Source: a virus
Reading direction: 5' to 3' (one strand)
Length of the DNA stretch: 64,000 bases
IMG/VR virus record: IMGVR_UViG_3300029922_000015
Span: 32,001 to 96,000 of that record
Shown here piece after piece: positions 11,224 through 50,881 of this stretch (position 1 is the stretch's first letter; the number at the start of each line of letters is the position of its first letter). Under the pieces are notes generated by a model. That model did no database searches, was not told the DNA's origin, and was given only the letters and a program-made list of their open reading frames with translations. The translations under genes were made by a program, and so were the position numbers.

Positions 11224-12399
11224 TTAAGTTTTGTCGGGTACATTGTCGAATTCAACCACAGGGCTTTCTGCCGCTAGGAACGAGCAAGCGAGATTATAAA
11301 GATAAGTGGTTACGGGTTCATTATTTTCTAAATAATCCTGCACGTTCTTTATCCCTTGAAACTTATCAGGAGTTTCGGGCTGAATTTTTCTCATTTCCGC
11401 AAGCATACTATCTTCAAAATTAAACCAAGCGCCCGATTTAATTAAAAGCTCTTTAGCCAACATGAAGTCGCAAACTTCTAACTCCCTCCAAATAGAAGAA
11501 CCATTCTTTCGTCCGTGTTTAATTGGATAAGTAAGTCTCAAGCCCTTCGTTTCGTTAGAAGATTTCTTGATTTCTACCTTGCATTGATGGCCTAGAATTT
11601 TGTTTTGAATTCTATCGGGCTTCTTTTTCGGGTCTTCAAGGATCAAATCGCCGGGAAATTGAGGAGCATAATCAATAATGTAATCCGACCAGTGTAATAG
11701 GGCGTTTCCCCCTGTAGCAGAAATCGTTCGTGGAACTCCCGCCGCATAAGGATCAATTTTAACGTCTGCCGAAACTTGCGAAATAAAGATTGTTAAGTGA
11801 CCAAATTTAAACAGAGGCAAAGCGGATTGCTGTAAGAACTTCTTAGAAACAACTTGCGGGCCAGCCACCTTGTTACTTTCTTCTAAGTTCTTAAGTTTAT
11901 CTTGTTTAAGAATAACACCATCCACAGAATCTAAAATAAAGCAATATCTGATATGCTCGGGATTATTCTCGATCTGGCCCTGAATCAGTCCAAGAATATT
12001 TTCGTAAATATTACTTTCGTGAATGTAACAAGTACCATTTACCCAATCTTCGGTTGAGCCGGAAACAAAGGTTAAGCCAGAACGTTCGATTGTATCCTGA
12101 GATAATCTTCCTTCTGCCTTAATGTAAATCGCGCGAGAATTAGGAACAGTCTTTAAGAAATTGCGACAGATTTCGAAAGCTTCGGGAGTTTTTCCCGCTT
12201 GATTAAAACCAACCAAACGAATTAAACCGGGGCCGAAGCCTCCATTCAAAACCGAATCTAAGGTAAGAGAACCGCTTGAAACCTTATAGCTTACAGTCTC
12301 TTCGAAGTTATAATGTTCTGCTTTAGTTTCGTTTAGATAGGCTTGCAATCTGTCTTGCGGGGATACGCCTTTTTCTTTTTCAACTTCTTTTTTCGCCAT
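11224..12399 (-). CDS. recA: RecA/UvsX-like recombinase
   Basis: SSGSLTLD..LNGG, GFNQAGKT, ILDSV, TGGNAL and SGAWF motifs. Confidence 0.9.
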   Translation of the reverse strand: MAKKEVEKEKGVSPQDRLQAYLNETKAEHYNFEETVSYKVSSGSLTLDSVLNGGFGPGLIRLVGFNQAGKTPEAFEICRNFLKTVPNSRAIYIKAEGRLSQDTIERSGLTFVSGSTEDWVNGTCYIHESNIYENILGLIQGQIENNPEHIRYCFILDSVDGVILKQDKLKNLEESNKVAGPQVVSKKFLQQSALPLFKFGHLTIFISQVSADVKIDPYAAGVPRTISATGGNALLHWSDYIIDYAPQFPGDLILEDPKKKPDRIQNKILGHQCKVEIKKSSNETKGLRLTYPIKHGRKNGSSIWRELEVCDFMLAKELLIKSGAWFNFEDSMLAEMRKIQPETPDKFQGIKNVQDYLENNEPVTTYLYNLACSFLAAESPVVEFDNVPDKT

Positions 12400-31507: not shown

Positions 31508-32137
31508 TTACTTATGAAGAAAATGACCCCAATCCTTATGGCGAGCTTCTTTAATAAAGAAGGAAATAGGCATCTTAGGAGGAGCTTTCGGCTTGCGAAT
31601 CAATTGCAAGCCCACTTCTTCGTTCGATCTGTTTCCCTTTCTAAAGTTGATTTCTTTATCGGTCAAAACAAGATTTCCCCAACTATTATCGCCGCCCTTG
31701 GATTTAGGTGTGACGTGATCAATAGAGGCTTGATGACGGCTAAGTTTCTTACCTGTATATTGGTCGATTCCGCCGTCTCGCTCGTAAATATTGGATTTAT
31801 TCGGGCTTTTTTCAACCATCGGCATTTTGTGATAGTCTATTGCAATGGTTACGGTTGGCGCTCTAAAGGCTCTGCAAGCGCCTTGAATCACACAATCGTA
31901 GTCTCGGATGGGTAGATTAATCCAATCGCTCCATTTGACGGGATAGATTTCTTTAGGATTATCGAAATCATACTCTCCTGTGATATTATTAATATCATAA
32001 GAAATATTCATAGCCCAAGTGCCAGAATCGCTAGATTCCTCGCACATGGAAATGATAGCTTGTTTGGCATTTTGGAAACCAATCGGCTCCCAATTGCCAT
32101 TTAACTTCAAGACTACGGGTTTAAGTATGTTGCTCAT
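31508..32137 (-). CDS. HNH endonuclease
   Basis: RD...QYTG, SIDHVTPKSKGG..SWGNLV and N..KGN motifs. Confidence 0.85.
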   Translation of the reverse strand: MSNILKPVVLKLNGNWEPIGFQNAKQAIISMCEESSDSGTWAMNISYDINNITGEYDFDNPKEIYPVKWSDWINLPIRDYDCVIQGACRAFRAPTVTIAIDYHKMPMVEKSPNKSNIYERDGGIDQYTGKKLSRHQASIDHVTPKSKGGDNSWGNLVLTDKEINFRKGNRSNEEVGLQLIRKPKAPPKMPISFFIKEARHKDWGHFLHK

Positions 32138-36695: not shown

Positions 36696-36739
36696 ACGGA
36701 GAATTACACCGTGGAGACGAAGGAGAGAAACTAAAAAAG

Positions 36740-37120
36740 TGGACACGAGCGGAGTCGAACCGCTGTCTTAGAAGTATTTAATACACAATGACTTACAAGC
36801 TTTTCCCATTTTGATTCCTTGTGAAGTTAAAAAGGAAAATGACTTCACACATAATCTAATTGTTAATAATAAAATTCAAGTACAATACGATAAAAACTTG
36901 ATTTTATTCAGATTAAACACATCGCAATCCATTATCTGAGTCCTAAACCGCGACGAAAGCTCCCTTTAAGAAGCTAAGGCTATGTCAGCAACGTTTCCGT
37001 TACGTCCATAGCTGGAACGAGTTTTATTGTCGTTTATTTTTTGATTGCTTTCACAACATTCAATCATAGTTGGCTTGCACTATATATCTTCGACTTCCAA
37101 TCGAAGCCTTTTACGTGCCC
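36740..37120 (-). ncRNA. ssrA: tmRNA
   Basis: 5' GGGCACGTAAAAGGCTTCGA, G3:U70 acceptor, T-arm GCGGTTCGACTCCGC; internal tag ORF DNKTRSSYGRNGNVADIALAS* at 36966-37031. Confidence 0.93.
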
Positions 37121-38844: not shown

Positions 38845-38923
38845 TGGTGGGGATAGTCGGGATCAAACCGACGCCGAAGCTTTGAGAGAGCTACATCCTA
38901 ATCAACTATTAGACGATATCCCC
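38845..38923 (-). tRNA. tRNA-Glu(CTC)
   Basis: Cloverleaf, CCA. Confidence 0.82.
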
Positions 38924-42549: not shown

Positions 42550-42629
42550 TGGTAGCCCAAATAGGATTCGAACCTACATATTATTCCGTTATGCTCCCAT
42601 CGCTTCGAAGGCGCGGTCAATATTGGGCT
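42550..42629 (-). tRNA. Aberrant tRNA-like RNA, anticodon TCG (Arg)
   Basis: Perfect acceptor and T-arm with CCA; no canonical D-arm; CGC-CTTCGAA-GCG. Confidence 0.55.
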
Positions 42630-48150: not shown

Positions 48151-48332
48151 ATTACTTATAAAACAAACTAATCGCAATGTAAATTGCGACGAAATATTCG
48201 AAATTGGTATGACAGGATAACACTATCAAAAACCACAGTCCAATCTTGAACCAATGTAAAAATTTATTTTTGTCCATTCTCTAATTATACGGTTTCCCCG
48301 ATAAAAAGTCAACTCGAAGTGTAATAAGAGTT

Positions 48333-48469: not shown

Positions 48470-48544
48470 TGGTGGGCCATGACAATTACGATATGTCAAC
48501 TTACGGGTTAAGAATCCGTTACTCTTCCTTTGAGTTAATGGCCC
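48470..48544 (-). tRNA. tRNA-Lys(CTT)
   Basis: Cloverleaf with atypical T-arm, CCA. Confidence 0.8.
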
Positions 48545-49424: not shown

Positions 49425-49467
49425 AAAAAGGATTACACCTTATTGCCGACTTAGAGAGTTTTAAAAG

Positions 49468-49542
49468 TGGTGCAAGTAGGCAGAAGTCGAACTGCCGATT
49501 CAGCTTTGGCAAAGCCGTAGGATACCATTTCCTCATACTTGC
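49468..49542 (-). tRNA. tRNA-Gly(GCC)
   Basis: Cloverleaf, A73, CCA. Confidence 0.85.
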
Positions 49543-49546
49543 GAAA

Positions 49547-49897
49547 TCATAAGGCTGCTAATCCAATTACGGACGCTTTACTTAGCTTCTCCATAGAAGC
49601 ACCTATAAATTGTGGGAAGCTGCTATAAGTAAACTTCTCTCGAAGTTCGCTGTTGTAACAGCCTCCCTAACTAACATAGGACTATCAGCGTCTCACGATT
49701 TCATTCGATTTTGACACTTTCCTATATAAAAGAACAAATTCTCATGGGGTAAGCCAAAATTTGTTACACTTTCTAGCGAGACTCGCTCGCCTTAACCCAA
49801 GTCCGCCTTACCGCGCTCGGATAGTGCTTTCTCGTTGCATCCCACTCTTTCGAAGTAGTCCGCGTGCGCCATTAAGCCGGGGCACGGAGGCAAATCT
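49547..49897 (-). ncRNA. Structured non-coding leader RNA(s) at the start of the tRNA array
   Basis: No long ORF; many stems (GACGCT/AGCGTC, GAGGCTGTTA/TAGCAGCTTC, AACAAATT/AATTTGTT). Confidence 0.45.
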
Positions 49898-49905
49898 GTA
49901 AAACT

Positions 49906-49938
49906 AAAAAACCCTTAAAAGCTTTTGCTTCTAAGGGT
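49906..49938 (-). terminator. Attenuator terminator
   Basis: ACCCTTAGAAGC-AAAA-GCTTTTAAGGGT followed by TTTTT. Confidence 0.8.
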
Positions 49939-49972
49939 GTAAATCACTAACTCTAAACACTTTACACCCTTA
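49932..49972 (-). promoter_or_regulatory. Antiterminator hairpin
   Basis: TAAGGGTGTAAA/TTTACACCCTTA perfect 12-bp stem sharing ACCCTTA with the terminator. Confidence 0.75.
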
Positions 49973-50092
49973 TAGTCTATCTCCGGTATTAAAGGCCCAT
50001 TGATAACTTGGGCGCAATGAGAAGGAGACAGAGGATTCCGTAATCGGGCAACCCTTTTTCGCTTCTGCTTTAATATTTTTCAGTGTCTTCAT
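49970..50092 (-). CDS. Putative attenuator leader peptide (40 aa)
   Basis: MKTLKNIKAEAKKGCPITESSVSFSLRPSYQWAFNTGDRL*; stop TAA begins the antiterminator. Confidence 0.7.
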   Translation of the reverse strand: MKTLKNIKAEAKKGCPITESSVSFSLRPSYQWAFNTGDRL

Positions 50093-50123
50093 CTAAAATC
50101 TTTTCTCTTCTTACTATTCCACC

Positions 50124-50151
50124 ATTATTCACACTTTGGGAAATTTGTCAA
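50124..50151 (-). promoter_or_regulatory. Sigma70-like promoter of the leader/tRNA array
   Basis: TTGACA-N16-AATAAT. Confidence 0.6.
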
Positions 50152-50212
50152 CTACTTTTTTCAACTTTCTTTTTCGTGAGCGGCGGAACGTCTGCTTAAA
50201 CCATCTACTATC

Positions 50213-50461: not shown

Positions 50462-50881
50462 TTATCCGTGGAATGCGTTGAATGTTGTATTGTAACTATC
50501 AAATAAATTCTTGATCTTCTCTGAACCGACAGGATTCATCGAGTGAACGTGAATCTCTGGAAGCTTCAAGCGATGGTGAAGACAATACTCGAAAAGGAAT
50601 TGGGCGCAGTGATAGCCAGTCTTTTCTTTGACCGAATCGTAAAACTTGTCTTCTCCTGTATAAAGAACGCGCCCACTAACATAAGCTTGATAATGCTCGT
50701 CGGCCAAATCGTGATCGAAGGAAACCTTTTCAGGAACTCCCTTATCCATGATCGTTTTACAAAAATCGTGGTAGTTCCGAACCACAAGAATATTCGTAAG
50801 GGGGAAGAACTTGTCTTCAAAGTCTCCCCACTTTACGTTCTTAGGTTCTCTAACGTCGTCAAGAAATAACTTATAAGACAT
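50462..50881 (-). CDS. Cyclic-phosphate-processing receiver domain protein (RNA repair-associated)
   Basis: LFLDDVR, VRNY, SFDHDL, TGY and VHSMNPVG motifs. Confidence 0.8.
   Translation of the reverse strand: MSYKLFLDDVREPKNVKWGDFEDKFFPLTNILVVRNYHDFCKTIMDKGVPEKVSFDHDLADEHYQAYVSGRVLYTGEDKFYDSVKEKTGYHCAQFLFEYCLHHRLKLPEIHVHSMNPVGSEKIKNLFDSYNTTFNAFHG

Follow-up and report, generated by a model that had tools for sequence, protein, structure and literature searches.

When does a phage make the transfer RNAs (tRNAs) that it encodes? Such tRNAs are seen as replacements for host tRNAs lost to defense nucleases or to host shut-off (PMC11464382, PMC11555353), and how phages time their production is largely unknown. 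The question is raised by a 64,000-nucleotide (nt) stretch of viral DNA (the window), positions 32,001 to 96,000 of IMG/VR virus record IMGVR_UViG_3300029922_000015, the minus strand of which carries 33 tRNA genes called by ARAGORN and a transfer-messenger RNA (tmRNA) between 49542 and 33440. At the head of this region stands a cassette consisting of two sigma70-type promoters, a short open reading frame (ORF) and two overlapping hairpins, and on balance we favor the reading that it is a ribosome-mediated (leader-peptide) transcription attenuator. If true, this would be a simple answer to the problem of timing, tRNAs being made when decoding is slow, and it would extend trp-type attenuation from the sensing of a single amino acid to that of the whole tRNA pool.

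Architecture of the cassette and its conservation

The original prediction, made from the letters of the window, had described a TTGACA-N16-AATAAT promoter at 50151-50124, a 40-codon ORF at 50092-49970, a 12-base-pair (bp) antiterminator anchored in the stop codon of this ORF and a terminator sharing the motif ACCCTTA with it. All of these are present where it had placed them (Table 1), the promoter (P2) with 11 of 12 matches and with an additional promoter (P1) further upstream. In the 10 kb scanned, P2 is one of four top-scoring (11/12) sites and the intrinsic terminator (T) is the top-listed terminator-like site. Transcription from P2 is predicted to start near 50117, which gives a 5' untranslated region (5' UTR) of ~25 nt. 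This 5' UTR is short, A-rich and devoid of a Shine-Dalgarno site, as for other genes of the phage (the 135 long ORFs show no Shine-Dalgarno signal, and the sequence upstream of them is A-rich). In the antiterminator (hairpin A), the 5' arm TAAGGGTGTAAA (49972-49961), which opens with the stop codon TAA, pairs perfectly with the 3' arm TTTACACCCTTA (49943-49932), the stop codon providing bases 1-3 of the stem. The 5' arm of T shares 7 nt (49938-49932, ACCCTTA) with the 3' arm of A. The stem of T comprises 12 pairs, including one G-U (-16.8 kcal/mol), and transcripts are predicted to end at ~49906. Among 19 strict terminator-like sites in the 150-kb genome, T is the only one with an overlapping upstream hairpin of at least 9 bp.

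In the mechanism that we propose, host RNA polymerase would start at P1 or P2 and transcribe the leader ORF, which has 36-40 codons depending on the lineage (see below). A ribosome reaching the last codons or the stop would cover and unzip the 5' arm of A; T would then complete, and transcription would end at ~49906. If the ribosome were delayed anywhere upstream, or absent, A would stay folded and the basal pairs of T would be blocked, and the polymerase would continue into a structured RNA, tRNA-Gly and the genes that follow. The claim that this is the attenuation geometry of amino-acid operons stands for the promoter, the ORF, the mutual exclusion of A and T, the placement of the stop and the position of the terminator; it fails for the regulatory codon runs, which are absent. 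Leaders of the trp, his, leu, thr, phe and ilv type (trpL, hisL, leuL, thrL and pheL of Escherichia coli/Salmonella) likewise have a promoter-proximal short ORF and an antiterminator overlapping an intrinsic terminator. In them, as proposed here, the antiterminator loses its 5' arm to a ribosome standing at the stop, and slow decoding leads to read-through. The distance from stop codon to termination is ~70 nt in trpL, similar to that in the cassette. However, whereas those leaders contain regulatory codon runs and serve biosynthetic enzymes, the cassette has 19-20 kinds of amino acid, mostly once each, ends in a conserved C-terminal peptide and serves a phage region of tRNAs and noncoding RNA. 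Moreover, no conserved upstream 1:2 pause/protector hairpin was found in the three lineages available.

These lineages were reached via the closest homologues of a neighboring cREC_REC protein. One relative is a 171.5-kb Logan contig (L074), whose cREC_REC and glycosyltransferase proteins are 59% and 69% identical to those of the window, and the other a 12.5-kb contig (L076), with a cREC_REC protein 55% identical to that of the window and a glycosyltransferase 77% identical to that of L074. A further contig (L073) is a 100% identical copy of the window region from another sample. Common to the three lineages is the order glycosyltransferase, cREC_REC, small gene, P1, P2, short ORF, hairpin, terminator, the whole cassette spanning 10815-11152 in L074 and 8835-9132 in L076. 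In L074 the first tRNA after the cassette is tRNA-Gly(GCC), with which an array of 24 tRNAs and a tmRNA begins; the L076 contig stops short of any tRNA, so that the linkage to tRNAs is seen in the window and in L074.

The geometry on which the original prediction had relied recurs in both relatives: reading frame, stop position, a covarying hairpin A and the overlap between A and T are all kept. P1-like sites occupy the equivalent place (L074 10833-10861, L076 8840-8868), P2 equivalents are present, and the homologous ORFs have 36 codons in L074 (10972-11082) and 38 in L076 (8951-9067). Hairpin A has equivalents of 11 and 12 bp (L074 11082-11123 and L076 9067-9105, respectively), each predicted independently, and it begins within the stop codon in each of the three lineages, L076 with its TAG included; in L074 and L076 the third base of the stop is the first to be paired. 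Between these two, at least three stem positions are altered on both sides with pairing kept, and in the window both arms are longer by one base, a G in the 5' arm and a C opposite it in the 3' arm, making one additional G-C pair. As MAFFT alignments misplaced hairpin A, these compensatory pairs were counted by hand from the sequences. The loop of A is not conserved. T and its T-run are found in all three lineages with a T sequence that is different in each, and A and T overlap by 7, 2 and 3 nt (window, L074 and L076), a spacer never being present.

All indels among the three leader ORFs are multiples of three, which keeps the frame, and the ATG and 15 residues are invariant. In the 19 aligned C-terminal codons of the window and L074, eight are identical, six synonymous and five non-synonymous, and the differences by codon position (3, 4 and 8 at the first, second and third) display a third-position bias. 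With its frame kept through indels, an unchanged ATG, 15 invariant residues and changes that favor the third position, the leader ORF is probably translated.

A conserved peptide with synonymous changes would also suit an ordinary small early gene, with a functional peptide, promoters of its own and a compound double-hairpin terminator, in which case the downstream RNA and tRNA-Gly would be transcribed by constitutive leak or from a weak promoter missed by the scans. Many sigma70-type promoters stand before small genes in this phage (sites with at least 11/12 matches number 27 in the genome vs 6.6 in shuffles), and compact genomes often place a terminator right behind a stop codon. In an unrelated phage, too, TAAGGGT, ACCCTTA and TAAGGGT followed by a T-run stand right after the stop of a large gene (L002 5670-5747; L003 5496-5573), a similar triple motif that is due either to chance or to a similar stop-coupled terminator switch. 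We nevertheless consider a small gene of this kind rather unlikely. It leaves unexplained why the stop codon lies in the base of A in all three lineages, and the overlap of A and T without spacer has persisted although the sequence of T has turned over. Nor does it account for T being the only terminator of the genome with such a partner hairpin, and no promoter was found for the conserved downstream RNA and tRNA-Gly. The peptide itself has no Pfam family and no homologue outside this clade: the window peptide has no match among 5.8 billion proteins, and a profile built from the three peptides retrieved, among 1.84 billion representatives, only the L076 peptide, whose cluster has one member, and spurious long repeat proteins.

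Alternative hairpins would serve any effector that stabilizes or melts A, and a protein, a tRNA or a small RNA acting in trans could thus decide between A and T, with the ORF irrelevant. Across the three lineages the P1 spacer (CCGTTAAAGAAAGC-like) is much better kept than the DNA on either side of it; to judge from its sequence, it may be an operator for some regulator, and it hints at an additional level of control. Such an RNA-only or protein-controlled switch is, in our opinion, highly improbable. The ORF has kept its frame, its start and its stop despite indels, and the unconserved loop of A offers no obvious binding site. With Rfam covariance models, no family reaches E <= 1 in 30000-54000 and nothing credible, T-box included, reaches E <= 10 in 49440-50160.

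IMG/VR scans with DNA patterns and with two neighbor proteins yielded no further relative of the cassette and one unrelated phage only; of two patterns run on JGI metagenome contigs, one gave nothing and the other three false positives. The glycosyltransferase led to 69 IMG/VR relatives (40-52% identical) with neither cassette nor tRNA array there, and contigs with other homologues of cREC_REC or the glycosyltransferase either have a different neighborhood or end before the site.

Table 1. Features of the cassette and its surroundings, in window coordinates
Feature	Coordinates	Strand	Remarks
cREC_REC protein (cyclic-phosphate-processing receiver, PF20274)	50462-50881	-	Upstream of cassette, with one small gene between; same in all three lineages
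Promoter P1	50213-50241	-	TTGACA-17-TAAGAT; 10/12 matches; overlaps end of upstream 73-aa (amino-acid) gene
Promoter P2	50124-50151	-	TTGACA-16-AATAAT; 11/12 matches
Leader ORF	49970-50092	-	40 codons + TAA; 19 amino-acid kinds; 33 distinct codons
Hairpin A (antiterminator)	49932-49972	-	Perfect 12-bp stem, 17-nt loop; RNAfold -14.3 kcal/mol
Intrinsic terminator T	49900-49938	-	Stem 49938-49927 / 49922-49911, loop AAAA, T-run from 49910
ORF-free structured RNA	49545-49900	-	~350 nt, directly after T; fold z-score -2.7
tRNA-Gly(GCC)	49468-49542	-	First tRNA of window array (33 ARAGORN tRNAs + tmRNA)
Internal promoter	48284-48312	-	TTGACT-17-TATAAT; within array; limits what attenuator alone gates

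Breadth and conservation of the leader peptide

What could a leader without codon runs report? The leaders of the window, L074 and L076 contain 19, 20 and 20 kinds of amino acid in 40, 36 and 38 residues, encoded by 33, 30 and 31 distinct codons, respectively. As a null we took windows of equal length, drawn from the long ORFs of the phage itself and from 837 ORFs of related loci; these windows have ~24-26 distinct codons (standard deviation, sd, 2.3-2.8) and ~16 kinds of amino acid (sd 1.6). Set against the 26.1 distinct codons (sd 2.4) that 40-codon windows of the phage's own ORFs average, the 33 of the window leader correspond to P = 0.003, and over the three leaders P ranges from 0.002 to 0.01. 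For kinds of amino acid, P is 0.06-0.07 in the window, 0.003-0.004 in L074 and 0.004-0.006 in L076. Among 944 ATG-initiated ORFs of 34-42 codons from all fetched loci, three have 20 kinds and two of these are the L074 and L076 leaders, and the window leader is the only one of the 142 such ORFs in the phage genome with at least 19 kinds.

The leader had originally been described as "pan-codon," and its composition is borne out: 33 distinct codons, 19 kinds of amino acid with His missing, and 26 distinct codons out of 27 in codons 14-40. The amino-acid breadth is indeed unusual and recurs out of sample, but the spread over synonymous codons, given the peptide, is not significant (P 0.10, 0.26 and 0.16 in the three leaders). 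Since synonymous spread adds nothing, the leader is better termed "pan-amino-acid" than "pan-codon." The leader of the window touches 26 of the 31 anticodons found by ARAGORN, vs 20.0 (sd 2.2) expected, a figure that reflects the same diversity as the codon count and is not independent of it. There is no run of any residue in the leaders, and the most frequent ones, Lys (5) and Ser (5), are scattered.

Because nearly every amino acid occurs about once and without runs, the most natural signal for such a leader would be overall decoding speed, or a shortage of any one charged tRNA, rather than one particular amino acid. We put this forward tentatively, since one codon per amino acid makes a weak sensor and the C-terminal peptide is conserved. 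It is possible, if doubtful, that the leader has been selected as a "one of each" probe, in which a stall at any codon, brought about by depletion or cleavage of host tRNAs (e.g., by anticodon nucleases) or by starvation, would induce the replacement tRNAs of the phage, the element shutting itself off again once decoding is restored. That host tRNA destruction is what would be sensed, as originally proposed, is a hypothesis. If true, the cassette would be a self-tuning counter-defense circuit, one of a wider and so far undescribed class of leader-peptide attenuators on phage tRNA genes, and a small natural device for sensing translation capacity that could serve as a reporter.

The 15 invariant residues include a YQWAF block and TGD, and T-G-D lies at positions -5 to -3 in all three leaders. 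The YQWAF block is offset by one residue relative to TGD in the window, and the spacing from Trp to the stop differs by one between lineages. This C-terminal conservation can be read in several ways. Residues that are rare and present once could perhaps be indispensable for coverage; the nascent peptide may have an effect that lengthens the stay of the ribosome at the stop; or RNA structure inside the coding region may be conserved, a small stem within the leader ORF being indeed conserved, without covariation.

Predicted switching and comparison with known systems

Does the position of a ribosome decide between A and T? Each leader was folded to the end of T by partition function, with a 28-nt unpairable mask at each ribosome position. 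Without a ribosome, the probability of A in L074 and L076 is 0.96-0.99 and that of the three basal pairs of T is 0.02-0.04. The latter remains at 0.00-0.09 for A-site positions from codon 1 to codon 33 in L074 and to codon 32 in L076, touches 0.21-0.24 at codons 33 and 36 of L076, and rises to 0.87-0.98 in both leaders when the ribosome is on the last two to three sense codons or on the stop. In the window, the local fold favors A by 1.8 kcal/mol (-18.9 for the A state vs -17.1 for the T state), and A is in the minimum free energy structure of the nascent RNA until the 3' arm of T is complete. The proposal that a ribosome at the stop masks the antiterminator and that one stalled upstream lets it form is thus reproduced in the folding of L074 and L076, but in the window only locally, as only the local fold favors A there.

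Long occupancy at the stop, which is what formation of T needs in this folding model, would equally result if the nascent peptide itself specifically arrested the ribosome at or near the stop, as happens in TnaC, SpeFL or the Erm leaders, whether or not a small-molecule ligand takes part. The conserved C-terminal residues would then act in the exit tunnel, coverage of the 5' arm of A by the arrested ribosome would set termination, and the amino-acid breadth would be incidental. The conserved block falls in the last 11 residues, the stretch that the tunnel encloses with the stop in the A site, and T-G-D keeps its distance from the stop in all three lineages. TnaC in particular resembles the cassette in having a conserved C-terminal peptide with Trp and Asp and in that ribosome occupancy at the stop decides termination, as it would in the cassette. 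However, the TnaC stall blocks Rho loading and thereby leads to read-through, whereas stop occupancy in the cassette would favor an intrinsic terminator; unlike TnaC, moreover, the cassette peptide has no terminal Pro and its Trp spacing is not fixed. With the one-residue offset of YQWAF in the window, no other known arrest motif, no ligand that can be named and the 19-20 kinds of amino acid in all three leaders left to chance (P ~0.003-0.07), we judge such an arrest to be quite improbable.

The reading of the cassette as an attenuator that reports decoding has to be weighed against the following points. In the window, T prevails (P ~0.8) in the equilibrium fold of the whole leader for most positions of the ribosome, since the 5' UTR is able to pair with the 5' arm of A, a pairing that is lost only with a ribosome on codons 1-6. 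This pairing of the 5' UTR and start region is absent from L074 and L076 and hence not conserved; judging from the model, it may be a protector segment or be irrelevant in vivo. The estimated barrier from A to T in the window is only ~6.7 kcal/mol, and in the relatives the overlap of A and T is just 2-3 nt, so that fraying could in principle permit both hairpins. The C-terminal peptide (YQWAF..TGD) is conserved as amino acids, which a pure codon sampler or speed probe does not predict, and one codon per amino acid is expected to give a much lower sensitivity than classical codon runs. Two of the three lineages are close (their peptides are 67% identical), so that the breadth amounts to about two independent observations. 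The genes of the phage have no Shine-Dalgarno sites, which makes the efficiency of initiation and the timing of transcription relative to translation hard to predict. Finally, internal promoters in the array restrict the regulatory reach of the element. All of these weigh against the attenuator, which we continue to prefer.

By analogy, the logic of the cassette would be nearer to that of upstream-ORF (uORF) attenuators sensing general inhibition of translation than to that of trp-type leaders. Examples of the former are vmlR of Bacillus subtilis (PMC9226507) and toiL-topAI of E. coli (PMC12121999), in which, as proposed here, a short upstream ORF reports stalling of many causes and relieves premature termination. 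They differ in controlling bacterial antibiotic-resistance or toxin-antitoxin genes, via Rho in the case of toiL, rather than phage tRNA genes, and we found none of this type reported for tRNA genes or in a phage. The same physiological logic is apparent in the trn operon of Anabaena sp. PCC 7120, a mobile long tRNA array that is induced by translational stress and has an HNH endonuclease and RNA-repair genes nearby (PMC8421152). There, in contrast to the attenuator proposed here, control acts on the promoter and depends on 9-nt direct repeats that cover the -10 box and the start site, and the text of PMC8421152 makes no mention of a leader peptide, attenuation, a terminator or a uORF. Full-text literature searches found no account of leader-peptide attenuation of tRNA genes.

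Reach of the element and genomic setting

How much of the tRNA region would the element control? Promoter scans of the window and L074 detected no site from T to the first tRNA, and that of L076, run to the end of the contig, showed P1 and P2 only. Since no promoter was detected there, the first products of read-through would be the structured RNA and then tRNA-Gly(GCC). The 3' half of the structured RNA is conserved (L074 11715-11929, L076 9240-9387); it forms two hairpins, and some of the changes in it are compensatory. The 5' half of the RNA is separated from the 3' half in L074 by an HNH endonuclease ORF (11256-11702). An identification of 49545-49900 as an RNase P-like or group I RNA was considered and has no support from Rfam.

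The original prediction had the element gate the whole array. This does not hold, as strong internal promoters start at 48312, 45740 and 34887; because of them the rest of the array is independent of the element, which would control the first transcription unit and, by read-through, contribute to later ones. No similar leader cassette lies behind any of these three promoters. The first of them is followed (48152-48312, minus strand) by a strongly hydrophobic 41-aa ORF at leaderless distance, just before tRNA-Pro.

The tRNA array is interspersed with homing-endonuclease-like and unknown ORFs. The tRNA model of Rfam adds 38848-38923, 48473-48544 and 42553-42629 on the minus strand, for which ARAGORN made no call; two of these are above the gathering score and one is just below. 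The tmRNA lies near the downstream end of the stretch of array examined in both the window (36739-37120, minus strand) and L074 (19488-19892), and the tag peptides are unusual, ending in ...ALAS / ...VLSA.

The virus record from which the window comes has 149,934 bp, with a G+C content of 38.6% and an estimated completeness of 75%. Peat metagenomes are the main source of DNA near-identical to that of this uncultured peat-soil phage, and blastn against GenBank phages found no close cultured or GenBank phage. Contigs from four sequencing runs are identical across the element, without micro-diversity. A more distant relative (L086) has, besides cREC_REC, an RNA ligase gene ~10 kb upstream on the opposite strand; together, cREC_REC and this ligase suggest an RNA-repair context around the tRNA region. 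On the plus strand, a run of near-consensus sigma70-type promoters begins in the window at 62490-62518 and 63253-63281 and goes on to genome coordinate 132487. Several of these promoters have an ATG starting 6 or 7 nt past the -10 box, a spacing that, taken from the sequence, suggests leaderless early mRNAs.

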